Shown here piece after piece: positions 2,902 through 44,077 of a stretch of DNA of 64,000 nucleotides. The position numbers and the translations under genes are program-made. Origin of the DNA: Candidatus Poriferihabitaceae bacterium (GTDB lineage Bacteria > Pseudomonadota > Gammaproteobacteria > Arenicellales > Poriferihabitantaceae); assembly GCA_965204925.1 (NCBI GenBank), contig OZ242021.1, positions 268,000 through 331,999 on the forward strand, written 5' to 3'. Position 1 is the first letter of the stretch; each line of letters opens with the position of its first letter. The notes under the pieces were generated by a model. That model worked only from the letters and a program-made list of their open reading frames with translations, was not told the origin of the DNA and ran no database searches.

Positions 2902-2939
2902 TGACCAGCCCTCGGGCACTTCTCAAAAATATCCCTGCA

Positions 2940-4066: not shown

Positions 4067-4148
4067 GGGAATAACCCGACAAAACCGCAATATCAGTAAT
4101 TGCCATTTTGCATTTTAATCCGGGGATACGACAGAGACGCCCGTTCCA

Positions 4149-8387
<4,239 letters not shown>

Positions 8388-8438: not shown

Positions 8439-11400
8439 TCAAAGATGCGGCAGACGAGCATGTGGAACGCCCGCAGGCGGTGAACCCGAGTGTCTGTGAC
8501 TTGCCGGCTGAGGACGATGTTCATGCTTCAACTCCAGGTTGAGTCCCAGCGCACGAATCTCCTTGACCAGAACATTGAACGATTCCGGCATACCGGTATC
8601 CATACCATGCTCGCCGCGAATAATATTCTCGTAAATCCTGGAACGGCCGCCGACGTCATCGGACTTGACTGTAAGCATTTCCTGCAACGTGTAGGCGGCG
8701 CCATAGGCTTCCAGCGCCCACACTTCCATCTCACCGAACCTTTGACCGCCGAATTGCGCCTTGCCCCCCAGCGGCTGCTGGGTGATCAGACTGTACGGCC
8801 CGGTTGATCGGGCGTGCATCTTGTCATCAACGAGGTGGTTCAGCTTGACCATATACATATAGCCGCAGGTAACCGGGCGGTCGAACCGCTCGCCGGTACG
8901 GCCATCGTACAATATCGTCTGTCCACTCTCCGGAATGCCGGCGAGTTTCAGCATCGCCTTGATTTCAAGTTCGTGAGCGCCGTCAAACACCGGCGTTGCC
9001 ATAGGCACTCCCTCACCCAGATTTCTTGCCAGCTCAAGCAACTCACTATCGGACAGACTATCCAATGACTCTTTTTTGCCACTGGAGTTATATACCTTTT
9101 CGAGGTATCTGCGAATCTGGTCGATACGCTTGTTCTTGCGCAGCATTTCATCGATTTTCTCGCCGATTTTTTTCGCCGCCCATCCCAGGTGGGTTTCCAG
9201 AACCTGCCCCACATTCATGCGTGAAGGCACGCCCAGAGGATTGAGACAAATATCGACCGTGGCGCCGTCCTCCATATAAGGCATATCCTCAACCGGAACG
9301 ATTCTGGAAATAACTCCCTTGTTGCCGTGGCGCCCCGCTATCTTGTCGCCGGGCTGCAACCTGCGCTTCACGGCGACAAAAACCTTGACGATTTTCTGGA
9401 CCCCCGGAGCCAGATCGTCGCCCATTTTGATTTTCCCTTGCTTTTCCTCGAAACGGCGGTCAAACTCCTCACGCTGAACCTGAATCTGGTCGCGGATTTT
9501 CTCGATCGCCCGGTTGGCCTGTTCGTCCCGAAGACGAATTTCAAACCATTCCTTGCGAGTCAACGAGGAAAGATAATGATCGGTTACGGCTTCTCCCGCC
9601 GCCAGGTTGCCAGGACCGCCTTCGGCGACCTGGCCGAGCAACAGCCGCCCGATACGGGCAAAGGCATCATCCTCGACAATACGCAACTGGTCATTCAGGT
9701 TTTTGCGGACGGTGTTCAGCTCGTCTTCATCATTGGCGGCAGCGCGGGCATCTTTTTCAAGACCATCGCGGGTAAACACCTGAACGTCGATAACGGTGCC
9801 CTTCATTACGGAAGGCACGCGCAGCGACGTGTCCTTCACATCCGATGCTTTTTCTCCAAAGATAGCGCGCAGGAGCTTTTCTTCAGGCGTCAGCTGGGTC
9901 TCGGCCTTGGGCGTAACCTTGCCGACCAGGATATCGCCGGGATGCACTTCGGCGCCAATATAGACAATGCCGGATTCGTCCAGTTTGGACAGGGCGTTCT
10001 CATTGACATTGGGAATATCGCGGCTGATCTCCTCGGAACCGAGCTTGACATCACGTGCGGTACAGGTCAGTTCCTCGATATGGATCGAGGTATAGACGTC
10101 ATCCTTTACCAACCGCTCGGAAATCAGGATCGAGTCTTCAAAATTGTAGCCGTTCCAAGGCATGAACGCGACCAGCGCGTTCCTGCCGAGAGCCAGTTCG
10201 CCCATGTCCGTGGACGGCCCGTCGGCTACAACATCGCCGCGCTCCACGACGTCTCCCACTTCCACAAGGGGACGCTGGTTGATCGTGGTATTCTGGTTTG
10301 AGCGCCGATATTTGGTCAGGTTGTATATATCGACGCCCGGCTCACCGTCGATCGCCTCATGATCATTGGCGCGCACGACAATTCTGGAAGCGTCCACGAA
10401 ATCGACCATGCCGCCGCGGCGCGCAATGACAGTCACGCCGGAATCGATCGCGACCGTACGCTCCATACCGGTACCAACCAGCGGTTTTTCGCTGCGTACC
10501 ACGGGCACCGCCTGACGCTGCATGTTGGAGCCCATGAGGGCGCGATTGGCATCATCATGCTCAAGGAACGGAACGAGTGAGGCCGCCACCGAAACAATCT
10601 GCTGGGGCGCCACATCAATGTAGTCGATCTGGTCAGGAGACGACAGGGAAGATTCATTTTTGTGACGGCAGGAAACCAGTTCACTGACGAACCGGCCGCT
10701 GGAATCCAGTCTGGAATTGGCCTGGGCGATGATGAACTTGTGCTCCTCGATCGCGGACAGGTAATCCACCCGGGCGGTGACCTTGCCATTTTTCACCTTG
10801 CGGTACGGAGTCTCCAGGAAACCGTATTCATTGGTTTTGGCAAAACAGGCCAGTGAATTGATCAGGCCGATATTGCCCCCCTCGGGAGTCTCGATTGGAC
10901 AGACACGTCCATAGTGGGTCGGATGTACGTCGCGAACTTCAAATCCGGCGCGGTCGCGTGTCAGTCCGCCCGGACCCAGCGCCGAAACCCGCCGTTTGTG
11001 AGTGACTTCCGAAAGGGGATTGGTTTGGTCCATGAATTGGGATAGCTGGCTGGAACCGAAAAATTCCCGCACAACGGCAGCAACCGGTTTGGCGTTAATC
11101 AGGTCCCGGGGAGTCAGGTTTTCACTTTCAGCCTGGTTCAGGCGTTCCTTGACCGCGCGCTCGACCCGCACGAGGCCAATACGAAACTGGTTCTCAACCA
11201 GCTCACCGACTGAACGCACCCGGCGATTTCCGAGGCTGTCGATATCGTCGATTTCCCCCTTGCCATTCTTCAAATGGATGATTTTATGCATCACATCGAC
11301 GATATCCTGCTTGCTCAATGTGCCGGGACCTTCATCGGATTCCCGGCCCAGACGCCGATTCAGCTTCATGCGCCCCACAGCGGAGAGGTCATATCTTTCC

Positions 11401-12590
11401 TGGTTGAAGAACAGATTTACGAACAAGGCCGCCGCGGCCTCCTTGATAGGCGGCTCACCGGGACGCATGACCTGGTAGATTTGCGCTTGCGCCTCTTCCT
11501 CCGTGCGGGCTGTATCAATACGCAAGGTCTCTGAAATAAACGGCCCGCAATCAATATCATTGGTATAAATCGTCTCCAGGTGAGTGATTCCGTTATCCCG
11601 GAAACTGTCCAGCAATTTCGGCGTGATTTCTGTGTTGGCGTCCGCCAGCAACTCTCCCGTTTCCATATTGATTACATCATGCGCCAGAGTGCGTCCTGCA
11701 ACAAATTCATCGGGCACCTCTATTTCCGTGATGCCGGCATCCTCCAGCTGCCGGATATGGCGGGTCGCGATTCTTTTTCCCGCCTCTACCAGTACCTTGC
11801 CGTCAGCGCCCGGCAAGTCGAAATCTAGGCGCTGTCCACGCAGCCGCTCAGGAACGAGTTTCAGCGTCGCCCCGCTGCCGCTCAGCGTAATGACATCATT
11901 TTCAAAGAACATGGCCAGCATTTCTTTCGTGTTGTAGCCGAGCGCCCGCAGCATGACCGTGGCCGGCAACTTGCGGCGCCGGTCAATACGGATATAAAGA
12001 TGATCCTTGGGGTCGAACTCCAGATCCAGCCAGGACCCGCGATACGGAATGATACGGGCAGTAAACAATAACTTCCTGGAAGGATGCGTCTTGCCCCCGT
12101 CATGGTCGAAAACAACGCCCGGCGAACGGTGCAGCTGGGATACCACTACGCGTTCCGTTCCGTTGACAACAAAGGTGCCGTTATCGGTAATAAGCGGCAT
12201 ATCGCCGAGATAAACTTCCTGTTCGATCTTCTCTTTCAGCTTCTTGTTAGCGCCGCTTTTATTGAAAATGACGAGGCTCATGACGGCGTGCAGCGGGCAG
12301 GAATAGAGCAAACTGCGCTGCTGGCATTCGAGCACATCAAATGGGGGCTTCCCCAGGCGGTAGCGGATAAATTGCAATTGAACACTGCCATTATAGCTTT
12401 CTATCGGGAATACCGACTTGAACGCCGCCTGAATACCCTGATCGATGCGCTGTTCCGGCGGCGTGTCCGCCTGCAGGTATTTACGGTATGATTCCTTTTG
12501 TGTCTCCAGCAGGTAAGGAACCTGATAATCATCGGAACGTTTACTGAAGTTCTTGCGAATACGCTTCTTTTCGTTATATGAATAACCCAT
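8439..12590 (-). CDS. rpoB: DNA-directed RNA polymerase subunit beta
   Basis: The ORF spans 8439-12614. [15 protein letters not shown] at the ATG at 12590 matches the usual RpoB start, and conserved blocks follow throughout (for example [24 protein letters not shown]). The C-terminus runs about 30 aa past the usual ...LNLEL end. Confidence 0.95.
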
Positions 12591-12741
12591 ATTTATTCTC
12601 TGATAACCGATCATCCGGCGCTGCGCAAGAACGGACAGCCCTTATGGGCGCTGCCCTGTCCGCCGCAACATAAAAAACATCAATGCGCTGCAAAAAACGC
12701 AAGCACGTCTGCCAATGGTTCCACTCCACCGCAGAGCGGGG

Positions 12742-16121: not shown

Positions 16122-16197
<76 letters not shown>

Positions 16198-16283
16198 TCG
16201 AGCCGACTTGTTGAATAAACCAACCTCGCTAACAAACTGTTCACTATACAACCCCTCCCGATAACCCGTAACACTCCCGGCAG

Positions 16284-16359
<76 letters not shown>

Positions 16360-16414
16360 AACCCGAACATCGCTTCCGCAAACCCCTGACTGCCACCAGT
16401 TCCACGGCGCCGAC

Positions 16415-16489
16415 TGGAGCGGGTGATGGGAATCGAACCCACATCATCAGCTTGGAAGGCTGAGGTTCTGGCCATTGAACTACACCCGC
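16415..16489 (-). tRNA. tRNA-Gly (anticodon TCC)
   Basis: The reverse complement reads GCGGGTGTAGTTCAATGGCCAGAACCTCAGCCTTCCAAGCTGATGATGTGGGTTCGATTCCCATCACCCGCTCCA. Confidence 0.9.
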
Positions 16490-16551
16490 ACCGGAAATTA
16501 CAATCAAATCAACCACTTCAACCTCTCGGTCACCTCAACATCCGGGCAACA

Positions 16552-16636
16552 TGGTGGAGGGGGGAGGATTCGAACCTCCGAAGGCTGAGCCAACAGATTT
16601 ACAGTCTGCCCCCTTTGACCGCTCGGGAACCCCTCC
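16552..16636 (-). tRNA. tRNA-Tyr (anticodon GTA), long variable arm
   Basis: The reverse complement reads GGAGGGGTTCCCGAGCGGTCAAAGGGGGCAGACTGTAAATCTGTTGGCTCAGCCTTCGGAGGTTCGAATCCTCCCCCTCCACCA. Confidence 0.9.
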
Positions 16637-31947: not shown

Positions 31948-34900
31948 TTATCGTGCCGACACTGACGTACAGGCGGTCACAGACATGACATTAGCCAACG
32001 TGCCGCATTTCTCCTTGAGCAGATGATCCGCCAGAGGAAAGAAGAAAGTGCTGATGGAATTGTAATCTATCACCGCTTGCGCGGCCTGCCCCTGACGCAC
32101 TCCCATCTCTTCCGCGACAATTTTTTCATATTCCTGCATTTCAGTTTTCTGCGCCTTGGTCCACTGGCCGCCCCGCTTCGTATTGTTGGTGAAGGGTGGA
32201 TTCATGATGACCACATCAAAGGCGTGTTGCGGGTTGAAGTCCTGACCGGAACCGGCCACATGCCGGCTGCCCGCCTGCTTCAGGGATCGTATGCCACCCC
32301 CCGTGATCGGAATTTCCTCGCCGAGCAACAACTCCAGCGACCCGGCTCCACGAATATTGCCTTTTGTATCGAATCCATGCGGCATGGAATAAACATTCAT
32401 GCACTCGAAATCCACCGATAGCCCGCCCAGGGTCATGTTGGACGCGGCCAGCTGTATGGCCTGATGATTGATATCCAGCCCGTAAATCGTGTTTTCGACC
32501 AGCTGCTTGTGCAGGTCGACAATATCCACTTGCGGGGCTGCTTCCTCAACCCGTTCCTTGATGGTCTTGAGGCAGGCCATGAGCAGCGTGCCGGTGCCGC
32601 AGGCCGGGTCGATTACGCGCAAATCGGCGGCTCTTGCCGGCGTCCAGTCGGTAAAATCCGGCGACAACGCCAGTCGCGCAAGCAGCAGCGCCGCCATGTT
32701 TTTCGTGTAGAACGCGCCCTCGCTCTCGGCCGTGTCGAGGATACGATGATACAGCGGTCCGGCATGATCGTAACCCAGTTCGCTCAACGAATCCGCAACG
32801 GCATTAGCGCAACTGACCAGACGATGCAATCCCGAAAAACACTCCACCTCATCCGGCAACGCCTCAAGCGCCGCAAGAGCCGGTTCGAATATCGGCGCAT
32901 AATCCCTGCGGAGAATTTTTCCCCACTCGTCCCGCAGTGTCCAGACCGGCTGGACCACCGAGCCGAATCCTTCCAGTCCCGCGAGACCCAGCGATTCAAT
33001 TCCACTCAGGCGCTTGTGCAACAGGCAGGCATTCGCTACCAATAGCGCGGCAATCCGGCATGTGTTTTTAGCCTCCTTGCCATCGCCAGTAAAGGATTTA
33101 CCGACCACGGGAGCCAGAGACTCTGCCGCGCCTGCCATATGGAACTTGTCCCCTGCCCACTGCACTGCATCCATGATATCGTTAGCGTTGAGTTGTCCGA
33201 ATGAACCAAGACCGGACGCATCTACTATACGGGTCATCAGGTTGCTGGCGATGTCATAACCGAAGATGTCTTCATTGACCTGATCGTGACGTTCCGCGCT
33301 TTCGGCATCGGCGGTATAAAACTCGGCCAAGGGATCCGGGACAGCGACTATGACACGTTGGGCAATTTCAGCAGCGAGTCTCCCGTCATGTGACTGAATA
33401 GCCCGCAGAACTTGTCCGATTACCCGATACCCGCTTTCATCCTGTTCGATATTTGCCAATGTAGCGGGCCCTCCGGAGATCACCACCGGCACGACGACAT
33501 AGCCGAGTTTTTTATCAGCGCCGCCGCGCCGCATGACCCGGCCAACGGCCTGCACCACATCCACCTGGCTTTTGCGGGGTTCGAGAAACACCACCGCATC
33601 CAGTGAAGGCACATCAACCCCCTCGGAAAACAGACGCACATTGCATAAAACTTCACTGGCCGCGGCATCACCGGAAACCGCGCGTAGTCTGTCCAGCGCG
33701 CGGAGTCGATCAAACGCCTTGTGACGGGCGTCCAGATGCTCTGCATGAACAGCCCCGGTTGTGGACGGATCACCCATTGTCCGGGTCGTACGTTCCTTGA
33801 CCTTCGAGTCCATCAACGCCTGTGCATACCATTTGGAGGCGGCAATAGTATTGCAATAACAGATCACCCGGCGCAGTCGGTCGGGAAGTTCGTCGGAACG
33901 GCCCTGGATATATCCGTTGAGCGCCAGTGAGGTTCCATATACACGGGTGATATGATTCTCAAGACCGGACTTGCGCACCGACCTGGCGGATGATTCCTCA
34001 ATGCCCTCCAAACGCCGTCTCATTTCAGCGCTCACCGGCGTATCCGGAATAGCCAGCACAACCACCCGGTAGTCGCATAACATGGGACGCCCGTCAATTC
34101 CCGGTGATTCGACGGCCTTTCTGAAGCTCAGGCGATAGAACTCCGGGCCGTAGGTATCCGTGTCATCCATATCGGACACTTCATAGCCCCTGGCGACCAT
34201 GCGCTGTTTGCTGCTCGCGGTATAGACTCTGGGGGTGGCGGTCATATACAGGCGTTTGGCAGCCTTGATATATTCATCGGAATGCACATCCTGGAATGAA
34301 AACTTGCCGGTAGCATCCTGCTTGCCCGCGCCGGTAGTCCAGTGGGCCTCATCGACCACGACAAGGTCAAAGGAACGGCTTCTTTCGTTCTGCCAGGATT
34401 CGGTGATGCGCCTGAGGGAATGGTGGGTGCAAAAAATGACCTTCACCCGGTCACTCGGCTTGAGAAACTTCTGAATCACCGAGGGATTGCGGGTAACCCG
34501 GCAGTTCAGTTCCAGCAGTCCCGCTTCCTCATCGGAGGACTGTCCGGCCGTGCTGTCCGAGCAAACAATCAGCGTGTTCATGTGCCGGCTCGACTGGCGC
34601 AGCCATTCCTTGCGCGCCTGACCGACGAGGGCAATACTGGGGGCGACAAACAGGATATTTTCCGCCTGTATGGCTTCAGCAATCTTCAGCGCTGTAAAAG
34701 TCTTACCGGTCGCGCATGCCATGACCAGCCTGCCGCGGTCGTGATGGGCGAAGCCATTGACACAGGCATCAATCGCTTCCTGTTGACGGGGTAGAGGATT
34801 ATGCGGTTTGCGTGTGGCCGTGTAATTGAGGGGGTCTTCGCGGTGCTTGTAGTAAAACGGGATGTATTTCCCCTCGTGCGAACGAAGATGGCTCTGGGCA

Positions 34901-35328
34901 TTGTTATTGATGCCACAGGTCGCGACAAGCATGGGATATTCGAAGACTCGTTGCCCTTCACTCTGCCCTGCGGAGGCAGAGAGAAATCCCTGTATATCCC
35001 TGAGCGACAACTTGCGCTCCTCCCGCCACAGCTTGCACTGAATCGCCACAAGCCCACCGGATTGCAGTTCACCGACGAGATCAATGCCCAGATCCTTTCT
35101 TTCACCCGATCGGGATTGCGACCAGTCGGCAAAGCGCAGCACGGAGCGCATCTCGTATTCAGGCAGCGTTGGCAGAACGGTTCGCACAAGGGTTTCAAAC
35201 TGCTCACCCTTGTCGCGCTCGGTCAGCGATGACTGGCGGATGGCATCAATTGCATCGCCAATGGACTGCGTATCATCGTCATAAACCGGCCGGGCCGAAA
35301 AGAGCGTCGATTGTCCCTGTGTAGCCAA
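31948..35328 (-). CDS. Type ISP-like restriction-modification fusion (Mrr-type nuclease, SF2 helicase-like ATPase, gamma-class N6-adenine methyltransferase); apparently lacks a TRD
   Basis: The 1126-aa ORF has an N-terminal D...QCK nuclease core (DLGIDLVGE...VAIQCKLW), helicase motif I (MACATGKTFT) and motif II (VVVDEAHW). Methyltransferase motif I is VIDPACGTGTLL and motif IV is VIMNPPF. The ORF ends about 85 aa after NPPF. Only a TTG start is available. Confidence 0.75.
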   Translation of the reverse strand: MATQGQSTLFSARPVYDDDTQSIGDAIDAIRQSSLTERDKGEQFETLVRTVLPTLPEYEMRSVLRFADWSQSRSGERKDLGIDLVGELQSGGLVAIQCKLWREERKLSLRDIQGFLSASAGQSEGQRVFEYPMLVATCGINNNAQSHLRSHEGKYIPFYYKHREDPLNYTATRKPHNPLPRQQEAIDACVNGFAHHDRGRLVMACATGKTFTALKIAEAIQAENILFVAPSIALVGQARKEWLRQSSRHMNTLIVCSDSTAGQSSDEEAGLLELNCRVTRNPSVIQKFLKPSDRVKVIFCTHHSLRRITESWQNERSRSFDLVVVDEAHWTTGAGKQDATGKFSFQDVHSDEYIKAAKRLYMTATPRVYTASSKQRMVARGYEVSDMDDTDTYGPEFYRLSFRKAVESPGIDGRPMLCDYRVVVLAIPDTPVSAEMRRRLEGIEESSARSVRKSGLENHITRVYGTSLALNGYIQGRSDELPDRLRRVICYCNTIAASKWYAQALMDSKVKERTTRTMGDPSTTGAVHAEHLDARHKAFDRLRALDRLRAVSGDAAASEVLCNVRLFSEGVDVPSLDAVVFLEPRKSQVDVVQAVGRVMRRGGADKKLGYVVVPVVISGGPATLANIEQDESGYRVIGQVLRAIQSHDGRLAAEIAQRVIVAVPDPLAEFYTADAESAERHDQVNEDIFGYDIASNLMTRIVDASGLGSFGQLNANDIMDAVQWAGDKFHMAGAAESLAPVVGKSFTGDGKEAKNTCRIAALLVANACLLHKRLSGIESLGLAGLEGFGSVVQPVWTLRDEWGKILRRDYAPIFEPALAALEALPDEVECFSGLHRLVSCANAVADSLSELGYDHAGPLYHRILDTAESEGAFYTKNMAALLLARLALSPDFTDWTPARAADLRVIDPACGTGTLLMACLKTIKERVEEAAPQVDIVDLHKQLVENTIYGLDINHQAIQLAASNMTLGGLSVDFECMNVYSMPHGFDTKGNIRGAGSLELLLGEEIPITGGGIRSLKQAGSRHVAGSGQDFNPQHAFDVVIMNPPFTNNTKRGGQWTKAQKTEMQEYEKIVAEEMGVRQGQAAQAVIDYNSISTFFFPLADHLLKEKCGTLANVMSVTACTSVSAR

Positions 35329-35430
35329 TATATCTCCAGCGCGCTGTAATGATAGTTGGTATCCAAATCAATATCGGGTTTTCCGGCAGGCGCTATATTA
35401 CACTCAACCCGGACACATTGCGAACCTGAT
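35278..35430 (-). repeat. Right arm of the inverted duplication (relic of an ATPase-ankyrin 3' end directly upstream of the Type ISP-like gene)
   Basis: See 28586-28736. On the minus strand the order is ankyrin-gene 3' end, spacer, Type ISP start, the same order seen on the plus strand at 28.6 kb. Confidence 0.8.
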
Positions 35431-35453
35431 TCTCGCTGGAGTAAACTTGCGTG

Positions 35454-37019
35454 ATGGGGAAAGATGGCGGACAGCTGAACGAGGAACAACGCACAGCGCT
35501 GGATGTGTTCACCAGAGATGGCGACCGGGGGTATACCCATATTTTCGTTGGGCGGGAAGCCGAATTGCAGTTGATCGGATCGCGAATCAGCAAACTTGTT
35601 GACAAACGGCACAGCCACCGCCCCGGCGCAGATTTGACAGTAGTTGTTCAGGGGGCGCCGGGCGCCGGTAAATCAGCGCTCCTCGAGAAAATTGAAGAAG
35701 ATTGGCCATTGGGAGAAAAGGGAAAGCCGGTAGCCATCCGAATTGCCGCAAGCGCGCTGAAATTGCCCATGGGGGAGTTGCTCGCAATCATTTCGCGCCA
35801 AGTGAACAGCGATTCGGCTATCCGGCGAACTCTGGCGAGTTTCCGTTCGATATCGGTTAATCCGGCCGGCATCGCCAATTTTACGGCGGATATGGATTCC
35901 TCGCAGCCAGGGGGGAAATCACTCACCCCGATTATTTTGCTGTTCGATGAGATACAGAGTGTACTTGCGGATGGTGTCCTGGAGCAGTCACGGGAGTGTT
36001 TGAGGGATAATCTGGAGTTACTGCACACGGGCGAACACGGAGTACCGATATTCCCGGTCTATGGAGGGCTTGCCAACAGCGCCGACCTGTTGCGCATGGC
36101 AGGTCTGACGCGGCTTGCCATGGGGTCGGAGTTGACGCTGCCGGGATTCCGTGATGACGAGATGAATGAACTGATGATGCGCTTCGTGGATAAGCATCTG
36201 TCCTCGGCAAAGCCGTCACAAGCTGTTATCGGCTGTTGGAGCGAGGCCTTTCGCCGCGACAGTCAGGGCTGGCCGATGCACTGCCGCAACTTCCTCATTG
36301 CATTATGCAAGGAAATTCGCGAGAAGGACTGGCAACCGCATGAGGCCAATCTCGACACAGTGCGCATGTACGCGCAACAGTTACGCTTTATGTATTATGC
36401 ACAGCGTATGCAAGGGGCGCTGGACGAAAGGTTCGCTCTGGTATCCAGGGCGCTGGAGGCGATGCGCCGGGGCGCCCCGAAGAAACGCGGGCAGATTGTC
36501 CAGTTGGTCGCAAAAGCGCACCAGGACAGTTTGGGCGAGGATTCTGGCTGGAGTCCCCTCCCTCATGGCATGACCGCAGAACAGGCTTTTGATGCGATGC
36601 TGCATTCCGGGATCGTACAGAAAACCGGCAAGGGAAAATTCTCCTGTCCGATTCCATCACTGGCCAGTTATATAGCGGCCAGGGCAACACTGCCGCCGAG
36701 TCCGTTGCATGAGGCGGTACTGGATGACGAGGCTGCGGATATGGATCATGCGCTTGATTTATGCCGGGATGACGAAGAGCGGGCGAAACTGCTTCATGCC
36801 GCGGACATACGCGGTCGTACGCCGTTGATGCTGGCGGTTGAGCTTGGCATGGCGGCAATGGTTGAACATCTGGTAAAAGCAGAGAGCCGCCTGCCTGCCG
36901 CGCTGCGGTCGGTGAAATCCGGGGACAGCGCCGGACGAACCGCGCGGGATTACGCCACCGCTTCGGGGGATGATCGGATGGTGGCTCTGCTGAACAGAAT
37001 CCAGCCTCATATCGACTAA
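35454..37019 (+). CDS. P-loop NTPase with C-terminal ankyrin repeats (paralogue 2)
   Basis: The protein is about 521 aa and collinear with 27036-28622, with VVQGAPGAGKSALL, IILLFDEIQ and GRTPLMLAVELGMAAMVEHLV. The C-terminal half is much more similar to paralogue 1 than the N-terminal half. A GTG at 35451 is an alternative start. Confidence 0.8.
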   Translation: MGKDGGQLNEEQRTALDVFTRDGDRGYTHIFVGREAELQLIGSRISKLVDKRHSHRPGADLTVVVQGAPGAGKSALLEKIEEDWPLGEKGKPVAIRIAASALKLPMGELLAIISRQVNSDSAIRRTLASFRSISVNPAGIANFTADMDSSQPGGKSLTPIILLFDEIQSVLADGVLEQSRECLRDNLELLHTGEHGVPIFPVYGGLANSADLLRMAGLTRLAMGSELTLPGFRDDEMNELMMRFVDKHLSSAKPSQAVIGCWSEAFRRDSQGWPMHCRNFLIALCKEIREKDWQPHEANLDTVRMYAQQLRFMYYAQRMQGALDERFALVSRALEAMRRGAPKKRGQIVQLVAKAHQDSLGEDSGWSPLPHGMTAEQAFDAMLHSGIVQKTGKGKFSCPIPSLASYIAARATLPPSPLHEAVLDDEAADMDHALDLCRDDEERAKLLHAADIRGRTPLMLAVELGMAAMVEHLVKAESRLPAALRSVKSGDSAGRTARDYATASGDDRMVALLNRIQPHID

Positions 37020-37171
37020 TATCCGGCAATGATCACTGCGCGGACGTTAGTCCTCATCACTCGCCTTACCGTCCGGAATGCGTGAACCGCCTCAACCAGC
37101 AACCGTTGTTCTTCAGTCAGCGAATAATCCGTAGTTACAACCGCCCGGTCTTGATATTCGTCTGATTATCA

Positions 37172-37347
37172 TTCATATGAACAGGGCGCCAGTTCCGCCC
37201 CGGCAACAGATGCAAATCACCCGGTTTCCATTTATACCGGATTTTCACTATGATAGGAATACAGCCGTGTCCGTGTCTGCTTTTGACGGCCAATACCCGC
37301 ATACCAATAGATCAGGAGAACAAGCGATTGCAGCCATGCCATACCTC
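37172..37347 (+). repeat. Leader repeat R, copy 3
   Basis: attcatatgaac...ggtttccatttataccggattttcactatgataggaatacagccgtgtcc...cccgcataccaatagatcaggagaacaagcgattgcagccATGccatacctc. This copy leads into the five-gene operon. Confidence 0.85.
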
Positions 37348-38097
37348 AAGGAAATCAGGAAGGGATATAAACAGGTCCAGCAAAATAGCGTCAACTCACA
37401 AAAAGTCGTGAAAATGGCGTTGCAATATGAGAATTGGAAAAACCTCCCGGGAAGTATTACCAATAAAATTTGCGATCACAACGATTATCCCGACCTGGAC
37501 GCTGACTCGGACAAACCTGTACCAGCTACTTCACAACTGGGCCGGGAATGTCAAATGCAGAGAAATACCCAAAGAATCGACCTGGCTTACACCTTGCACA
37601 GATATAGACCAACTGCCTCTTCTCTACCATTTGACCCGCTAGACGCCGGAGACTTCCCCAGAATCTGGGAGTTGCTTGCAAAGGACAAAAACAGGAGCAA
37701 ACAGGAAAGCAAGAGATGGGTTACTACAGTCCCTTTAACCCTCCGATCAGAACAGGATTTTCGCGACCTGATATGTCGTTTGGGTATGTACCACTGGCAA
37801 GGGACACCGCAGGACACCCCTGTCTTTTGCCTGAAATTGAGTGGAATCAACTGTGTAAAACCCAACGCGCTGGACGCGGATTTGGCATTCTACTTCCATC
37901 AAACACCAGAAAAAGCTCCCGGTCGAACGAGAAATCTGAAAACAGGCCGACCGGATATGGAGGAATGGCTATGCCCGGAGAAAAATCAAGCTTCCATCAA
38001 ATGTGTAGGCGTCTGCTTTATCAGAAAAGACATCAAAATTAATATGGGTGCTTATTTCGGCAATTGCGTGAAAAGGATACAAGGCAACAAGGGGTAG
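37336..38097 (+). CDS. Hypothetical protein A (no recognisable domain), first gene of the five-gene operon
   Basis: The ORF spans 37177-38097. I prefer the ATG at 37336 because it is the conserved MPYL start of leader R. The protein is about 253 aa and I recognise no motif in it. The start is uncertain. Confidence 0.55.
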   Translation: MPYLKEIRKGYKQVQQNSVNSQKVVKMALQYENWKNLPGSITNKICDHNDYPDLDADSDKPVPATSQLGRECQMQRNTQRIDLAYTLHRYRPTASSLPFDPLDAGDFPRIWELLAKDKNRSKQESKRWVTTVPLTLRSEQDFRDLICRLGMYHWQGTPQDTPVFCLKLSGINCVKPNALDADLAFYFHQTPEKAPGRTRNLKTGRPDMEEWLCPEKNQASIKCVGVCFIRKDIKINMGAYFGNCVKRIQGNKG

Positions 38098-38105
38098 AAA
38101 ACTGT

Positions 38106-39113
38106 ATGGACAAGGAGCAAATAATCAGGCAATTCTTTCAAAACGAGGAGGGTGCGATTTCGTATGTTCGAAACCGTCTGCTGGGTAATTTCGACAAAGC
38201 CCCGCCGCCAACCAGTGACCGTTTTATTGAAGAATTTCCGACCGATATTTTGCAACACCTGGTACTGTCCGATACCCTTGTGGACAAAACTGTTTTCTGG
38301 AATGCCTGTTTCCGTTTATTCAAGGAATGGCGCGCCCCCCGGGAAGCCGATGCAAACAGTGCGGCTGGCTTGAGTGAGTTGGTCTATATGATTCGCCAAT
38401 TCCACCGCCGCCATGAAGATATTTTCCGGGAAGAAAAAAGACGCTGGGAAGAAGAGTTGAAGAATCCCGAACTTCTGCCAGCGAGCACGGATGGCAAGCC
38501 GGAGAGAAATATGGTGTATGCCCAGAATTTGAGTCTGGTGCATATCTGGAACCTGTGGCCAAAGAATAGATGGTCAAAACTGTATGAACTTATTTTGGAA
38601 AAAGAAAGTGTAAATAACGACACCCGATTTGAGATCATGCTGATTACCGCCCAACATTTGGATTGGGATGCAACCAAGACCAGGCGATTGTTTCAGTGGG
38701 CCTTGGAGCGCCGGAATCATCTGCCGAAAACTTTCTACAACGAGTATTTTTTCAACCGCTTATACCTGTGTGGTCCTCAAGCAAATAATACAGATGTAAA
38801 TGAACGTAAAGACTGCCAGAACAAACTGGTTAATGATACCCTGAAGGCCTGTGTATATCTGTCCGACGCTCTGTCCAGGGAACAAAAAAAGACTCTCGGC
38901 AAGGCTTTGCTTGAAGCCAGCGAACTGTTCGATTTGAAAAGTTTCCAATGTCTTGCCAGGCGAACAAGGTCGTTACTGAAGCAGGAACTGGACAAACTCG
39001 CCCAACCGCCTTCTGAAAAGGAAATCAGTATATGCAAGCCTGTTACTGCCCCCTTGAGCGGAAGTGGATACATGAGTAATCAGTACGCTGGCGCACTGCC
39101 AGCGGCCGCCTGA
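38106..39113 (+). CDS. Hypothetical protein B (predicted mostly helical, no recognisable domain)
   Basis: The ORF spans 38064-39113 but opens with TTG. The first ATG, at 38106 (MDKEQIIRQFF), lies 8 nt after the stop of A. Codon usage looks coherent and the gene is tightly spaced within the operon. Confidence 0.6.
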   Translation: MDKEQIIRQFFQNEEGAISYVRNRLLGNFDKAPPPTSDRFIEEFPTDILQHLVLSDTLVDKTVFWNACFRLFKEWRAPREADANSAAGLSELVYMIRQFHRRHEDIFREEKRRWEEELKNPELLPASTDGKPERNMVYAQNLSLVHIWNLWPKNRWSKLYELILEKESVNNDTRFEIMLITAQHLDWDATKTRRLFQWALERRNHLPKTFYNEYFFNRLYLCGPQANNTDVNERKDCQNKLVNDTLKACVYLSDALSREQKKTLGKALLEASELFDLKSFQCLARRTRSLLKQELDKLAQPPSEKEISICKPVTAPLSGSGYMSNQYAGALPAAA

Positions 39114-39117
39114 AACA

Positions 39118-41931
39118 ATGTCTGATCAACCCGCTCAATTCGTGTCTTTCTATTCCTACAAAGGCGGGGTGGGACGTAGCACGGTGCTGGCTAATCTTGC
39201 CTGCCGGCAAGCTGTACAAGGTAGCAAAGTTCTGATTATCGACCTTGATCTGGAAGTTCCGGGACAGCACAGCAGTAGGTTATTCTCGAATAATCCGATC
39301 GCCGATTCGGTAATAAAAGGAGGATTTGTTGACCTCTGTGCCGCTTGGCAACAACACCATGAGAAAGCTGGTGATCAGGTCTATGAATGGGATTTGCGGG
39401 ATTACATGCTGCGCAGTACTTTTCCGGATCAGTTGTTCGGAGCTGACAAGGGAGAAATATTCCTGATGCCTGCCGCCAGAAGGCCGGATACAGGCTATGC
39501 CGAAAAACTGGGCAGGCTCGATTGGCACAAATTTTTTTCACCGTCAATCAAGGGCTACCAGTTACTTGCCGCCTTGCAGCTGTTTTGCAAGATTGAAGAG
39601 TTCGACTGGGTGTTTCTGGACTCCAGGACGGGACTCAGTGATCCCTATTACATGACCACTTCCTGGCTGAGTAATACCGTTGTTTGTTTCAGTACGCTGA
39701 GTCGGCAAAGTATTGAGGGATGCCGCTATGCCATGGAGCGTATCATGACTGAAGACTCCATACACAAATATGGCGAAAAGCGCGTACTGCCCGTAGCCAC
39801 CCTGATTCCTCCGACCAGAAATTTTGAGGCCAACAACAGAATAAAAGCCATCCTTGCTAATGAGTGGCCGGAAATTGACAACCGTTTCGTCACTGAATTC
39901 CGGTATGACGATGCGCTGGCTCTGGAAGAAAAGATACTGGTAGCAGAAGATGGGTGGGAAAGCTCGGATTTCGGCAAATCATTACAGGAATTGGCGGCTG
40001 CTTTGGAGACCCGCGATTCTTACCTGATCAGTCAAGAGCGGATGCGTCAACGCTTTGGAGAGAGAACCCTGAAAAATCCTTTCCCCAACCTTCGTATCGA
40101 GTACTGGAGTCCACCGGAGGTTGCCAGCCATTATTCTGTTATTTACCCGGAGATTGAAGAACAACTGACAGCCTTTCAACCGGTTATTGTTTATGGTTCC
40201 CGGGGAACGGGCAAGACGACCATGGCCCGCTATTTTGACTATCAAGCCCAACTAATCGTTTTCAGGGAAAAATACCAACGTACACCAACCCCTCGGGAAC
40301 TCCGTTATCTTGGTTTGTGGATTCGTCAGGACAGTGATTTTCTCAAGGCATTCAATGTATCTGACGAAGATAAACAGAAGAATTACAGCGCCTTGTTTGG
40401 CTTGTTCTTTGATATGGTTGTGTTGCGCAAGGCATTACAGGCCATGGAAGAGACCGGAGGACTGGCTGGCTGGGTCAAATCAACTACGAGATTATTCCGC
40501 ATTTTGCGCCGCGAAATCGGCGTGGAAGTTAATGAAAACTGTGGTATGGAGGGATTCCTGGAACATCTGGAAACCCGCTTGTATGAGATTCGAGCCTATA
40601 TCAACAACCCTAATTGCATCAAAATCCCTTACCTGTTCCAGAGTAATACCTTGATGAAGTTATTGGCAGAGCAACTAAAGGAAAGGGAGAATTTCCATTT
40701 CGTGGTGTTTGTCGATGAGGTCGAAAACTATGCAAGCCATCAGCAGCAAATGCTGAATACCCGGGTCAAAAATGTCAAGGAAAGCGATTCCGTCACCTAT
40801 AAACTGCTTACCCGTAATGACGGAACGAAAACCACGTTCACAGATGCAGACGATCAGGAACTGGAGGTGACCCACGACTATCGCGCCTGTTATCTGGATG
40901 AAGGGATCGGATTTGATGAATTCAGAAAACGCGCGGAAACCCTGGTGAATCGTTATGTTTCCCATTCAGTCCAGTTTCGGCATCTCGGCAAGGCGCAAGA
41001 CTTTCTGGGACATCTGACACCGCAGGAAGAGGCGCGAATAATCTGTGGGAGCCGTGGAAACAAACCGTTGGTCAAACACTTGGGCGAGCAACATTCCCTG
41101 GAGGCGGACCATGCCTTGATACAATGGATGCAAAAGGAACCCAGCCTGTTGCGCCAGACGGTCGCTGTGGTAATAGTCAATCAAGGTAAAGGCGCCGATA
41201 CCGTCGCAAGGAACATGCACGCCAACACTTCTACCGCGCAGGACTGGTACCACAATTATTCGAGAGGAGCCTTGTACTGGTTGTGCACCTTATACAGAAA
41301 AGGAAAAACATATTCCGGCTTTAATGATATTGCCGGTATAGCAGGCGGGAATATCCGTGTAGTCGTGGATATATTTTATTCGATTTTTGCGGAGTGGATT
41401 AAAGAGACTGAAGAGAAAGGGAAGCAGCAGCCATTCAGCTATCAACTGCAAAACCGCTGCATCCATGAACTGTCGGAAACCTGGTTCAGGAAGCTCGACC
41501 GCTTCCGGCCCACGGAACACCGGTTAAACCGGCTGATAGAGCGCCTCGGCAATCTTTTTTCCGCGATACATAAAAGCCCGAGTCAGGGAGAACCGGAAAT
41601 CAATCATTTCTCGACAAATGGGGAACTGGACGCCGGTACACTGAAATATCTGAAAATTTGCCTGCGGGAGAATTTGTTGAGATGGCTGCCCAGCAACAAA
41701 CAAAAGTCATCCAGCGATTACCTGCCAGACGCCTTTCAGCTTAACCCGTGTTTTGCCCCACATTTCGGTATTTCATGGCGGAGGAAAAAGAAGCTCACAC
41801 TTGCGCCCGACGATGTCCGCATGCTCTGTTCGGGCACAGATGAGGGTTGGAAAAGGACCCACTCACGGGTCGAACGGCAATACCATAATGAAAGACACAG
41901 CGACCACTCCCAAATGACCCTGACAGTTTAA
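39118..41931 (+). CDS. Double P-loop protein C: N-terminal ParA/MinD-like domain with a KGGVGR variant Walker A, plus a central AAA/ORC-Cdc6-like ATPase and a large C-terminal region
   Basis: In this 937-aa protein, aa 11-22 read FYSYKGGVGRST (a deviant Walker A with Arg in place of the second Lys). KVLIIDLDLEVPG and WVFLDSRTGLSD are ParA-like. A second Walker A, VIVYGSRGTGKTTMA, lies at aa ~356-370 and a Walker B, FHFVVFVDEVE, at aa ~526-536. Confidence 0.75.
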   Translation: MSDQPAQFVSFYSYKGGVGRSTVLANLACRQAVQGSKVLIIDLDLEVPGQHSSRLFSNNPIADSVIKGGFVDLCAAWQQHHEKAGDQVYEWDLRDYMLRSTFPDQLFGADKGEIFLMPAARRPDTGYAEKLGRLDWHKFFSPSIKGYQLLAALQLFCKIEEFDWVFLDSRTGLSDPYYMTTSWLSNTVVCFSTLSRQSIEGCRYAMERIMTEDSIHKYGEKRVLPVATLIPPTRNFEANNRIKAILANEWPEIDNRFVTEFRYDDALALEEKILVAEDGWESSDFGKSLQELAAALETRDSYLISQERMRQRFGERTLKNPFPNLRIEYWSPPEVASHYSVIYPEIEEQLTAFQPVIVYGSRGTGKTTMARYFDYQAQLIVFREKYQRTPTPRELRYLGLWIRQDSDFLKAFNVSDEDKQKNYSALFGLFFDMVVLRKALQAMEETGGLAGWVKSTTRLFRILRREIGVEVNENCGMEGFLEHLETRLYEIRAYINNPNCIKIPYLFQSNTLMKLLAEQLKERENFHFVVFVDEVENYASHQQQMLNTRVKNVKESDSVTYKLLTRNDGTKTTFTDADDQELEVTHDYRACYLDEGIGFDEFRKRAETLVNRYVSHSVQFRHLGKAQDFLGHLTPQEEARIICGSRGNKPLVKHLGEQHSLEADHALIQWMQKEPSLLRQTVAVVIVNQGKGADTVARNMHANTSTAQDWYHNYSRGALYWLCTLYRKGKTYSGFNDIAGIAGGNIRVVVDIFYSIFAEWIKETEEKGKQQPFSYQLQNRCIHELSETWFRKLDRFRPTEHRLNRLIERLGNLFSAIHKSPSQGEPEINHFSTNGELDAGTLKYLKICLRENLLRWLPSNKQKSSSDYLPDAFQLNPCFAPHFGISWRRKKKLTLAPDDVRMLCSGTDEGWKRTHSRVERQYHNERHSDHSQMTLTV

Positions 41932-42890
41932 TGCTCGAAGAGTACGAACCTGTGGAGCAATCCTACCCGAAAATAGCCGGCTTGCATCCCTGGAGCCTGT
42001 TACTGACCGGAGGTGAGGAAACGCAGATTGAACCCCGATGTGGAGAAACTGTCACGAAAATCTCCGGTCACTTGCCTGCAAATTGCCAGCATATCTGCAT
42101 TACCCGCCAACCGGACAGGGGAATGGAGGGCAAATTTCTTTTTGGCAAAAAGGGAAAAACAGAGGAGGCGTCTGCCCAGGATTTCCGCGAAGGTTTTGAA
42201 AAAATCACGGAGCGGGCTCTTTCCGGGGAGGACGCAATTAACATATTAATGGACATCACCAGTCTGGAACTGGATGTAATCCTTCATCTTCAGAATTTAT
42301 TCAACCAACCGCGCAGTAGTGTACAAAACCTGTCTGCGCTGTACTCATCCCCGATGCAGTATACAGGCCGTGACCAGTACAAATTACGGATCAATGAAAT
42401 TGCACAACCTCCCGGTTACATCTCTTTGCGTATGGATGACTCCTCCTCTTATCCCCATGTTTTTATATTGGGATTTGACAAAGGCAGGGCCTTGCGATTC
42501 CTGGAGTTATTTGATGAGTGGAGAGATCATGAGAAATATGCCATTATTATTGACCCCTCGTACATGCCGGACGGAGCCGAAATAGCCAGAAAAGCAAATT
42601 CATGGATTAAGGAACTGAAGCCTGAGCAAATTTTTTCAATCGACCGGCTCGAACCGCACAAGCTCCGTGAAAAGCTGAAAGAGCTTTATCAATCCAGCAA
42701 CCGGTTGGACATAATACCGCTGGGACCGAAGCTGATGCTTCTGGGAATGACCCAATTCTATTTTTCTTTGGCTGAAGCAGAGCGGAATAATATCCGCATC
42801 CTGTATGATTTTCCACAGCCGACTGCTGACGCCAGCACAGGTATCAGTGGGCATTATCTGTTCAATTGCCATGGTCACAAGACACTATGA
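41931..42890 (+). CDS. Hypothetical protein D (alpha/beta pattern, no recognisable catalytic motif)
   Basis: This 319-aa ORF starts on the last base of gene C's stop (TAATG), and its stop overlaps gene E's start (ATGA). Repeated hydrophobic beta-strand-like segments occur (INILMDITSL, HVFILGFD, YAIIIDPS, LDIIPLGP). Confidence 0.6.
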   Translation: MLEEYEPVEQSYPKIAGLHPWSLLLTGGEETQIEPRCGETVTKISGHLPANCQHICITRQPDRGMEGKFLFGKKGKTEEASAQDFREGFEKITERALSGEDAINILMDITSLELDVILHLQNLFNQPRSSVQNLSALYSSPMQYTGRDQYKLRINEIAQPPGYISLRMDDSSSYPHVFILGFDKGRALRFLELFDEWRDHEKYAIIIDPSYMPDGAEIARKANSWIKELKPEQIFSIDRLEPHKLREKLKELYQSSNRLDIIPLGPKLMLLGMTQFYFSLAEAERNNIRILYDFPQPTADASTGISGHYLFNCHGHKTL

Positions 42891-44077
42891 ATCTGGCACA
42901 GCATTTTACAATGAACTGTCATGCAGATTTAATGGTCCGTGCCATGTTCCCGTTCACCGGCAACGGAAAATATATAAAGGGAGTTGACCTCGGCGCGGGA
43001 AGGGGAGCGCTCCTCCACTCAGCCACCCGAACATGGAAAGGAGCCAGCTTTTTGGGGGTGGATATTTCCCGGCCTTTATTGGACACCATAAAACAACACT
43101 TCCCTGCAGTTCGGTTCTGTTATCTGGACTTGCTGAGTAAAAAGTCGCTGAAATCAGGGATACTGGCAGATTTATCCGAGTCCCATGACGTTGCGGTGTG
43201 CAATCCACCTTTCCTGAACCATAGGAACGACAAACTGTTTCGTGACCTTTGTCACATGACCAATTTGAAGGACTGTCGCAAGATGTCTATCGTTACGTCC
43301 GACGTCATATTCTTGCTGCACAATTTACGCCTGCTGAAAAAGGGCGGCGCTCTCGGCATTATATTGCCTGACGGCCTGATTACCGGTGAGAAATTCCGGA
43401 TACTGCGTCAAAGTCTGCTGTCCAACCATCGGATTGAAGCCGTTATTCAATTGCCCGACAATTCGTTCGCCGGCATTGAGGCCAGGACGCATATTTTAAT
43501 TTTGCGGAAAGATATGACATCAACGGAAAAGGTGAAGATCATGCGTTCGGGCGCCAGCAGTATAACGGAGGAGTTGGAGGTTGACGTTTCCGGTCTGGAG
43601 CAGCGAATGGATTACTCATACTGGCGCTGGAGATTGGCCGCCTCAAAGGCGAAAGCCTTGACATTGGCAGAAATTGGCGCAGATATTAATCGCGGTACAA
43701 GGCCCCGAGCATTTTTTGAAAGTTCAGGGATTGAATATTTCCATACCATTGGGCTGCCTGTAGCCGCCAGACCTGTCAATTTCCCGAGATCCAGGCCCCG
43801 GGAAGTCAGGATGGCGGAATCACAGGATATATTAACGGCCAGAGTCGGGAAACGGTGTATCGGTAGAACAGTACTCGTAAACAGAGGGAGTCTGCCAATA
43901 ACGGATTGTATTTATCGTATCCGCATACCCGAATGCTGGGTCAATAAAGTATGGCAATCATTCAATTCTGACAGTGCGCGGGACTGGTTTTCAGCGCATT
44001 CCCACGGTGTTTGCGCCCAGGTTATCAGCAAGTCGGATTTATTGAATTTTCCTGTCGATTACTGCCGGGAAGAATAG
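42887..44077 (+). CDS. N6-adenine DNA methyltransferase, gamma class, with C-terminal TRD-like domain (TaqI/Eco57I-like architecture)
   Basis: Motif I is GVDLGAGRGALL and motif IV is DVAVCNPPF. The C-terminal ~170 aa resembles a single HsdS-type target-recognition domain (ADINRGT...DILTARVGKRCIGR...CIYRIRI). I prefer the ATG at 42887 (ATGA overlap with D); the ORF track starts it at 42866. Confidence 0.8.
   Translation: MNLAQHFTMNCHADLMVRAMFPFTGNGKYIKGVDLGAGRGALLHSATRTWKGASFLGVDISRPLLDTIKQHFPAVRFCYLDLLSKKSLKSGILADLSESHDVAVCNPPFLNHRNDKLFRDLCHMTNLKDCRKMSIVTSDVIFLLHNLRLLKKGGALGIILPDGLITGEKFRILRQSLLSNHRIEAVIQLPDNSFAGIEARTHILILRKDMTSTEKVKIMRSGASSITEELEVDVSGLEQRMDYSYWRWRLAASKAKALTLAEIGADINRGTRPRAFFESSGIEYFHTIGLPVAARPVNFPRSRPREVRMAESQDILTARVGKRCIGRTVLVNRGSLPITDCIYRIRIPECWVNKVWQSFNSDSARDWFSAHSHGVCAQVISKSDLLNFPVDYCREE

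Follow-up and report, generated by a model that had tools for sequence, protein, structure and literature searches.

The DNA analyzed here, a 64,000-nucleotide window of contig OZ242021.1 from Candidatus Poriferihabitaceae bacterium (assembly GCA_965204925.1), contains five adjacent genes, designated A to E, which we interpret with moderate confidence as a mobile, methylation-linked and nucleoside triphosphate (NTP)-driven defense cassette, representing a ParA-fused variant of a widespread family. The invariant core of this family consists of an ORC-CDC6-like ATPase, a CARF6 protein and a DNA methyltransferase (the products of C, D and E, respectively), and it is combined with one exchangeable module, which in the window involves A, B and an additional N-terminal domain of C. 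The gene order, domain identities, conservation, co-inheritance and mobility of the cassette, as well as the faster evolution of A and B, are directly observed; the way in which the encoded proteins would cooperate is proposed from these observations.

The available evidence supports a view of the five genes as one horizontally acquired operon located in a defense hot spot. As the initial annotation of this region had described, and as an open reading frame (ORF) listing together with a direct reading of the junctions reproduced, all five genes are co-directional and closely packed. An 8-nt spacer separates the TAG of A (ending at 38097) from the ATG of B (at 38106), a 4-nt spacer separates the TGA of B (ending at 39113) from the ATG of C (at 39118), C and D share 1 nt in a TAATG at 41931, and D and E share 4 nt in an ATGA at 42887-42890. 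The start of A at 37336, yielding a protein of 253 aa, fits the lengths of its homologs (244-258 aa); longer in-frame starts are also present at 37267 and 37177. Promoter and terminator scans of the region returned as many sites as expected from shuffled sequences, and a weak sigma-70-like promoter match upstream of A (9/12 matches) therefore counts as no more than a candidate. The operon had been judged by eye to be more AT-rich than its surroundings, in agreement with its GC content of 0.482 vs. 0.561 in the 17 kb upstream and 0.558 in the 20 kb downstream.

The main evidence for a conserved cassette comes from its recurrence in other genomes. Approximately 91 full-length homologs of C were found at 90% clustering, nearly all of them metagenomic. 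Only one full-length locus was recovered by a contig scan seeded with the ubiquitous KGGVGR motif, while a metagenome scan seeded with the C-terminal motifs of C, in which loci were classified by purpose-built hidden Markov models, provided 82 loci (22 of the type represented in the window and 60 of a second, sister type); all presence counts given below take in only those loci with enough contig sequence at the relevant side. More than 30 independent loci, spanning C identities from 33 to 80%, contain the five-gene set, a recurrence far beyond chance. The order A-B-C-D-E is observed in Methylomonas sp. HW2-6 (CP184124.1, C identity 40%), in a metagenome-assembled genome of Gallionellaceae and in others, and a permuted order E-A-B-C-D appears at C identities of 33-34%. 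Among the window-type loci, D follows C in 20/20, E is present in 6/6 and A in 9/9, whereas pooling of both types gives CARF6 after the ATPase in 78/78 and a methyltransferase in 35/35. A co-occurrence of C homologs with A, D and a methyltransferase is borne out by these counts, which make the methyltransferase an obligate partner in both types. Identities of C, D and E also drop together (50/43/48, 40/35/41 and 33/28/28), and the five genes are supported as a conserved functional unit. In one otherwise intact cassette, an insertion sequence with a DDE_Tnp_1 transposase (locus L085, 10942-11919) lies between C and D, interrupting the coupling of these two genes that is seen at all other loci.

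The sister type shares with the window type an AAA+ family with a GxRGxGKT P-loop and the C-terminal motifs EPE(I/V)NHF and RRKKK, a CARF6 gene directly downstream, a methyltransferase of the same subfamily (PADLOC model PDLC03285) and an equally tight linkage of these three genes; the models that recognize D and E also recognize its CARF6 protein and methyltransferase. It differs in that its ATPase lacks the KGGVGR ParA-like domain and that a PF24390 ("PRTase-CE") gene, matching PADLOC retron PRTase_III-A effector models at ~1e-20, stands upstream of the ATPase in place of A and B. The position of its methyltransferase varies as well (downstream on the same strand or, often, convergent or upstream). 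In this type, PRTase-CE is present in 44/44 loci, CARF6 in 58/58 and the methyltransferase in 29/29. The window type has been seen only in environmental Proteobacteria, and the sister type is common on plasmids. An example is provided by pKPHS2, an IncFII/IncR conjugative plasmid of K. pneumoniae HS11286 (genes KPHS_p200550-p200520, NC_016846.1, locus L100, record positions 31850-36926), where the sister operon is located ~1 kb from repA and its genes are annotated as "hypothetical" except for a "DNA methylase family protein". A tblastn search of PLSDB yielded the same match in 129 Klebsiella, 7 Serratia, 3 Enterobacter and 2 Escherichia plasmid records, of which pKPHS2 was the one inspected.

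Several sister-type loci contain additional genes. The system on Moraxella osloensis plasmid p4 includes an extra dUTPase gene, and the extra gene upstream of the PRTase-type system in the Moraxella locus L098 (4335-5000) encodes a dimeric dUTPase_2-family protein; the corresponding gene of an Acinetobacter locus (L099, 4356-4994) encodes an uncharacterized protein of 212 aa. A record labelled "Acinetobacter phage MD-2021a" resembles a bacterial chromosome (cstA, efp, tRNA-Val). The sister type on a B. gladioli plasmid adjoins DUF4433 and macro-domain genes. In L090, where the PRTase-type system is found on a conjugative element with ArdC and a coupling protein nearby, its neighbors (10179-12734) are a further ORC-CDC6-like ATPase, which is divergent and carries a zinc ribbon, and, after it, a 284-aa protein with an RHCIVH (Rx4H, HEPN-like) motif.

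Protein C combines two different P-loop NTPase domains, as had been proposed from its sequence and is now established by matches to NF047398 and PF24389. The first is a KGGVGR-variant ParA/MinD-like domain of the SIMIBI class (NF047398, NCBIfam "KGGVGR-motif variant AAA ATPase", 127.6 bits vs. a cut-off of 90), which is also matched by the PADLOC model PDC-M28B (1.3e-25) and has Soj and MinD among its matches in a PDB profile search. Compared with the ParA/MinD pattern KGGxxK[ST], the signature Lys, switch I and Walker B are all present, whereas the P-loop Lys is replaced by Arg. In other proteins this domain is an N-terminal partner of TIR, NB-ARC, CHAT and TPR modules, which is consistent with a role in conflict-system signaling or output. 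The remainder of C had been left as unknown beyond an anonymous AAA domain, a description that has to be replaced, as the C-terminal ~600 aa correspond to a single Pfam family, the ORC-CDC6-like AAA+ module PF24389 (2.7e-84, 284 bits vs. a cut-off of 27, covering profile positions 1-571 of 571). Arg362 of its Walker A motif is invariant in 28 diverse homologs; the motifs SGxNIRxxLxLC, EPExNHF, KQKS and ISxRRKKKL of the C-terminal third are kept throughout the wider ATPase family, and WYHNY is a further conserved C-terminal motif. From these sequence patterns we infer that SGxNIRxxLxLC would be a Cdc6/Orc1-type sensor-2 and that the basic stretch would bind DNA. A search of PDB for sequence relatives of the C-terminal 380 aa returned none. 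The same unusual AAA+ type, recognizable by the Arg within its P-loop, was described by Makarova et al., 2014 (PMC4012209) in fusions that also include a kinase and a CARF domain, and the PADLOC model CARF6--CARF_STK_AAA gives a weak match to the AAA+ of C.

Protein D, previously grouped with A and B as matching nothing that could be named, is in fact a member of the CARF6 family, as indicated by its match to the PADLOC model PDLC01920 (one of the "CARF6--CARF_CARF_CARF" models, 2.4e-13) and by its predicted fold; the earlier statement continues to hold for A and B, neither of which has a library match. No match to D was found in Pfam or NCBIfam, and a search for sequence relatives in PDB likewise returned none. 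Its structure was predicted with high confidence from a 41-sequence alignment (predicted local distance difference test, pLDDT, of 92; predicted template modeling score, pTM, of 0.91), and the top PDB matches of this model by Foldseek are CARF domains of Card1, Csa3, Can2, Csm6 and a ring nuclease (probability 0.98-1.0 across 130-150 residues, with modest E-values of 1e-3 to 1e-2), along with the two-lobed SAVED domain of SAVED-CHAT, aligned over ~290 columns. Based on these matches, D is predicted to be a stand-alone tandem-CARF, SAVED-like protein. In each half, the loops that follow strands 1 and 4 hold the near-invariant residues (R36, D108, G181, R186 and G265), and it is at these loops that CARF domains bind their ligand (PMC4012209). 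The D family is rare: a search of 1.84 billion representatives gave 50 clusters at E<=1e-3, each of ~300 aa.

The assignment of E as a self-contained gamma-class N6-adenine methyltransferase with a single target recognition domain (TRD) is corroborated by its motif order (motif I before NPPF, followed by a C-terminal HsdS-like TRD, as in TaqI-like type II methyltransferases), by Pfam matches (N6_Mtase, 2e-15; Eco57I, 2.7e-9) and by a match over its full length to the PADLOC MTase_II model PDLC03285 (1e-60). Its relatives in PDB are Type I/IIG methyltransferases, and its TRD is as conserved as its catalytic half. A partner restriction endonuclease was not found by the profile searches of A-D or by comparison of the predicted fold of A, which matches no known nuclease. 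The absence of nuclease, TIR, SIR2, PLD and helicase motifs noted by the initial annotation is likewise reflected in the lack of any such profile match to the five proteins.

The products of A and B have no match in Pfam, PADLOC, NCBIfam or PHROGs, and they are the fast-evolving part of the cassette. Between the window and the related genome L088, identity amounts to 65-67% for A and B, 77-80% for C, D and E and 86-88% for the flanking genes. Protein A is predicted to adopt a confident alpha/beta fold (pLDDT 83.6, pTM 0.79), for which Foldseek found no structural analogs in PDB or BFVD (template modeling, TM, scores below 0.3 and E above 0.09). Candidate identities of A as a nuclease or a cyclase were rejected by the same comparison, in which the cyclase-domain rows (TM 0.12-0.15, E above 2) are noise. 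It is detectably homologous in all window-type cassettes, yet diverges faster than C, D and E, and its residues N33, G150, Y186, P191, R199 and E210 are invariant in distant cassettes. The position of B is constantly occupied by a protein of 260-370 aa; however, distant B proteins cannot be aligned (phmmer, hmmsearch and hhalign, with hhalign probability <4%), and a single conserved B family across cassettes was rejected since these methods fail beyond relatives of ~33% identity. B was also considered as a HEPN protein and rejected, its Rx5H stretch being unconserved.

A distinct feature of B is its C-terminal tail. Among its close homologs, 20/37 end in AA, and 15 of these end in LAA after YMxxxYA[GR]; of 17 independent lineages, 9 have the AA ending and another 3 have APA, AVA or SPA. 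The background frequency of AA endings is 3.75% of 1147 ORFs (a crude estimate), and it is zero in the A, C and D family members. The ssrA tag (...YALAA) is recognized by ClpXP and ClpAP. The resemblance provides a lead that B may be a short-lived protein by virtue of an ssrA-like tail.

Table 1. Coordinates of the cassette genes, their motifs and neighboring genes (positions within the 64,000-nucleotide window).
Feature	Positions	Strand	Description
Gene A	37336-38097	+	253 aa
Gene B	38106-39113	+	335 aa
Gene C	39118-41931	+	937 aa, double P-loop protein
Gene D	41931-42890	+	319 aa, predicted stand-alone tandem CARF-like (SAVED-like), CARF6 family
Gene E	42887-44077	+	396 aa, gamma-class N6-adenine DNA methyltransferase, single HsdS-like TRD
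Candidate sigma-70-like promoter (weak)	37225..37254	+	TTTCCA, 18 nt, TATGAT; 9/12 matches; upstream of A
B, C-terminal tail YAGALPAAA	39084..39110	+	candidate ssrA-like degron
C, KGGVGR-variant ParA/MinD-like (SIMIBI) domain	39136..39744	+	aa 7-209, NF047398
C, SIMIBI P-loop KGGVGRS	39160-39180	+	signature Lys kept, P-loop Lys replaced by Arg
C, switch I DLDLE	39241-39255	+	
C, SIMIBI Walker B DSRTG	39619-39633	+	
C, ORC-CDC6-like AAA+ module	40075..41802	+	aa 320-895, PF24389
C, AAA+ Walker A GSRGTGKT	40195-40218	+	includes R362
C, AAA+ Walker B VDEVE	40711-40725	+	
C, GGNIRVVVD	41344-41370	+	sensor-2-like motif
C, EPEINHF	41590-41610	+	C-terminal conserved motif
C, SWRRKKKL	41773-41796	+	C-terminal conserved basic motif
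D, conserved loop MDITS	42249-42263	+	
D, conserved loop LGFDKGR	42468-42488	+	GFD..R
D, conserved loop PLGPK	42717-42731	+	
E, motif I VDLGAGRG	42983-43006	+	aa 33-40
E, NPPF	43202-43213	+	aa 106-109
AAA/NACHT-like ankyrin paralog 1	27036-28622		
M.BglII-like methyltransferase and BglII-like endonuclease	28873-30410		restriction-modification pair
Type ISP/IIG-like Mrr-helicase-methyltransferase	31948-35328	-	
AAA/NACHT-like ankyrin paralog 2	35451-37019		

The genomic setting of the cassette agrees with the defense-type island proposed for it earlier, as a BglII-type restriction-modification (R-M) pair, a Type ISP/IIG-like enzyme and two AAA-ankyrin paralogs are located upstream (Table 1), while ilvD and other housekeeping genes are found downstream. 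The locus was compared with that of L088, whose housekeeping proteins are 86-88% identical to those of the window (87-88% for the flanking MTTB and DAO/GcvT proteins). The left flank is syntenic between the two genomes, and in L088 the cassette directly abuts the DAO/GcvT gene, whereas in the window a 10.6-kb insertion (about 26634-37222) separates the two; at the other end, homology between the window and L088 stops exactly at the stop codon of E. This insertion carries R-M and signal transduction ATPases with numerous domains (STAND)-like genes, and the comparison is direct evidence that the locus is a hot spot accumulating defense genes. The GC content of the cassette is below that of its flanks in 6/7 genomes, and other copies adjoin DarTG-like, NACHT, MmeI-like or Lamassu-like genes or reside on conjugative plasmids. 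Direct or inverted repeats and att-like sites flanking the cassette were sought, and only short matches at chance level were found; E. coli genomes gave no DNA match to the cassette. In locus L082 (4235-14315), an E-A-B-C-D cassette has a full-length malate synthase G gene on one side and, on the other, a 305-aa piece of a malate synthase C-terminus, with an MmeI-like enzyme and an AAA_15/DUF4276 pair immediately upstream; the arrangement looks like a partial target duplication from insertion.

The two ankyrin-ATPase paralogs, which are 66% identical, bracket the BglII-type pair and the Type ISP-like gene, have no PADLOC match and may represent an uncharacterized STAND-like defense gene. The second of them, adjacent to A, was considered as a further cassette member and rejected, being absent from every other cassette and having its paralog elsewhere in the same island. 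The BglII-type endonuclease gene has a GC content of 0.49, close to that of the cassette, against 0.55-0.57 for its neighbors, a difference that points to independent acquisition events in this island. In the minus-strand region 30595-35328, the Type ISP/IIG-like ORF (1126 aa) accounts for only 4-649 of the 1646 positions of a PADLOC model, together with the start of a methyltransferase domain; next to it, a plus-strand ORF at 30742-31965 (407 aa, no library match) overlaps a 307-aa minus-strand ORF, and the Type ISP-like enzyme may have suffered a frameshift or truncation. Four clustered tRNA genes are located at 16125-16636 on the minus strand.

Combining these observations, we propose a working model in which methylation by E, at a fixed motif, would mark host DNA as self, and the AAA+ module of C, bound to DNA via its conserved basic C-terminal region, would act as an ATP-dependent switch. 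D, positioned beside C, would gate this switch through a nucleotide-type ligand in its pseudo-dimeric CARF pocket, the switch being turned on by unmethylated incoming DNA, by an infection-derived ligand, or by both. The output of the sister type would be its retron-III-A-like PRTase toxin. In the window type, the KGGVGR ParA-like domain of C, acting together with protein A and its new fold, would take over this function, and B, with its hypervariable sequence and ssrA-degron-like C-terminus, could serve either as a short-lived brake or as a phage-facing specificity subunit. The assignment of A, B and the KGGVGR domain to the window-type output follows from their position and from their substitution for the sister-type PRTase, and together they look like a swapped-in output module. 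A more specific version of this model, envisioning a cyclase-free CARF immune family in which a tandem-CARF protein gates an ORC/Cdc6-like ATPase that reads N6-methyladenine, with A and the KGGVGR domain as the output and B timed for destruction, is a tentative proposal to which we assign a rather low likelihood.

A number of observations weigh against an interpretation of the cassette as a methylation-linked defense system. The TRD of E gives no sign of swapping between cassettes, unlike that of many R-M and BREX methyltransferases. The few invariant polar residues of A (N33, Y186, R199 and E210) form no obvious catalytic set, and a search of A-E with the profile libraries did not find any recognizable effector chemistry. 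As an Arg replaces the catalytic Lys of its P-loop, the KGGVGR domain of C may bind NTP without hydrolyzing it and is perhaps inactive. A nucleotide cyclase that could supply the CARF ligand was not found in the operon or in the flanks scanned. Several copies of the cassette are flanked by plain housekeeping genes, only 2 related loci are present among 2.9 million IMG/VR viral contigs, and full-text literature searches did not reveal a published phenotype or experiment for any member. Finally, in two divergent relatives (L093 and L101), comprised of the ATPase and CARF6, a methyltransferase was not seen in the available DNA, and methylation is thus not required by every family member. The first of these loci (290-6477) encodes a radical-SAM-like protein, a metallophosphatase, the ORC-CDC6-like ATPase, CARF6 and a ThyX-like (Thy1) protein, and it directly adjoins a Lamassu-like block (CTD7, MC3, LmuB_C); this gene content hints at nucleotide or base modification in place of methylation in that branch.

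The same two relatives feature in the best-surviving alternative, an abortive-infection or addiction module, in which infection or stress, sensed by C and D, would set free a toxic activity (that of A with the KGGVGR domain or, for the sister type, that of the PRTase), E would be the antidote half of an addictive R-M-like pair or would protect DNA from the activity of the system itself, and the benefit would accrue mainly to the mobile element through plasmid stabilization or competition. This alternative, which we consider unlikely, draws on the presence of the sister type beside repA in conjugative plasmids of Klebsiella and in further plasmids, on the resemblance of its PRTase to retron type III-A toxins, on the antitoxin-like character of B (hypervariable, with a degron-like tail), on the abortive-infection outputs that CARF/SAVED proteins typically drive, and on the two divergent members in which the methyltransferase was not seen. 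However, the methyltransferase is present in 35/35 loci and co-diverges with C and D, and a pure signal-to-toxin system leaves a dedicated DNA mark difficult to account for; in addition, most window-type copies are chromosomal and lie off recognizable mobile elements. The two readings, methylation-linked defense and abortive infection or addiction, are compatible rather than exclusive.

The same location of the sister operon, ~1 kb from repA on pKPHS2, and the membership of the ParA/MinD and ORC/Cdc6 modules in segregation and replication families could instead point to a maintenance or epigenetic module of mobile elements, which would control partition or replication, use an orphan-like methyltransferase as a regulator and have no immune role. 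Such a function appears improbable, as the cassette contains no ParB, centromere-like repeats, replication origin, integrase or relaxase and occurs in chromosomes as an isolated five-gene block, and as the sister type, which lacks the ParA domain, retains CARF6, the methyltransferase and a toxin-type PRTase. Moreover, other proteins carry the KGGVGR domain in fusion with TIR, CHAT and NB-ARC, and A and B evolve at the speed of an arms race. The weakest alternative, a divergent minimal BREX system with A and B as BrxA and BrxB, C as BrxC and E as PglX, which would block phage DNA replication without cleavage, is suggested by a similar layout, in which two small proteins accompany a large AAA+ ATPase of the ORC/Cdc6 class and an N6-adenine methyltransferase, and by the description of BrxC in a 2026 BREX census (PMC12839542) as a STAND/ORC-Cdc6 AAA+ with winged-helix domains behind it, but is highly improbable given that PADLOC and NCBIfam models of BrxA, BrxB, BrxC, PglZ and BrxL have no match to A-E at E<=0.1, that the PglZ profile likewise has none in the neighbors scanned, that PglX models reach only ~120 aa of the generic catalytic core of E (3.4e-7; NCBIfam 28.9 bits vs. 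a cut-off of 500), that E comprises 396 aa with an HsdS-like TRD compared to ~1200 aa of PglX, that BREX has neither a CARF protein nor a ParA domain, and that the parts of the census searched contain nothing similar.

If the interpretation as a methylation-linked defense family is correct, this family would operate with a CARF/SAVED-type sensor in the absence of a known cyclic-nucleotide synthase, raising the question of what CARF/SAVED-type domains bind outside CRISPR and CBASS. The natural swap of modules (PRTase vs. A, B and the ParA-like domain) could in that case be used to separate sensing from output, and protein A offers a well-predicted fold without an analog in PDB or BFVD. In the same event, the unannotated sister operon of pKPHS2-like conjugative plasmids may have consequences for phage therapy and for the movement of plasmids in a host of clinical importance.

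With respect to known systems, none of the libraries searched (PADLOC v2, NCBIfam r20 of June 2026, Pfam and PHROGs) assigns a named defense system to the operon, and the sister type is likewise unnamed in NCBIfam r20 and PADLOC v2. The full-text literature searched contains no description of the system. The earlier designation of the operon as undescribed nevertheless goes too far for its core parts, which are known (PF24389, PADLOC CARF6, Makarova et al., 2014); indeed, parts of the PF24389/CARF6/methyltransferase neighborhood have been catalogued computationally before, according to Pfam and PADLOC model names. The window has 3/4 features of these systems, the absent one being PRTase-CE (PF24390) upstream of the ATPase. 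A and B were both considered as PRTase homologs and rejected (no PF24390 match; hhalign probability vs. PRTase-CE <1%), and therefore the window cassette is a variant rather than a standard member of this neighborhood. An assignment to BREX, MADS, DISARM, Dnd/Ssp or R-M types I-IV was rejected as well, since their profiles in PADLOC, NCBIfam and Pfam give only generic methyltransferase and P-loop matches; for all of these except MADS, the initial annotation had come to the same conclusion.

Side-by-side comparisons place the cassette between several of these systems. Like BREX type 1, it combines small accessory proteins with a large AAA+ ATPase of the ORC/Cdc6 class and with an N6-adenine methyltransferase, and it lacks an obvious nuclease; it differs by having no PglZ, no BrxL and no BrxA/BrxB homology, by its small TaqI-like methyltransferase in place of PglX, and by its CARF6 protein and ParA-like domain; this profile-based outcome agrees with the earlier impression of a BREX-like layout lacking PglZ, BrxL and a PglX-type methyltransferase. 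With MADS (mad1-8) it shares a multi-gene organization with a methyltransferase and ATPases (mad8 vs. the AAA+ core of C, 1.6e-4; mad2 vs. the core of E, 2.8e-12), but these scores are far below the family level (NF047738, MADS2, 36 bits vs. 720), and the other mad genes have no counterpart. The CARF/SAVED sensors of type III CRISPR and CBASS resemble D in their Rossmann-like fold, in the SAVED-like tandem pseudo-dimer and in the loops at the canonical ligand site; in contrast, D has no fused effector, its partners are an AAA+ ATPase and a methyltransferase, and neither Cas10 nor a CD-NTase is present in the operon, in the 17-53 kb part of the window or in the related loci inspected. The fusions of a Zn-ribbon, a Ser/Thr kinase, an AAA+ domain, CARF and a winged helix-turn-helix (PMC4012209) also pair the same distinctive Arg-P-loop AAA+ with CARF, albeit within one kinase-containing protein, whereas the window has separate coupled genes, a methyltransferase and no kinase. 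Overall, while the cassette falls outside the methylation-plus-ATPase systems (BREX, MADS and BREX-related systems; PMC12839542) by the genes and profile scores that define them, it is by analogy these systems that it would most resemble in its mode of action.

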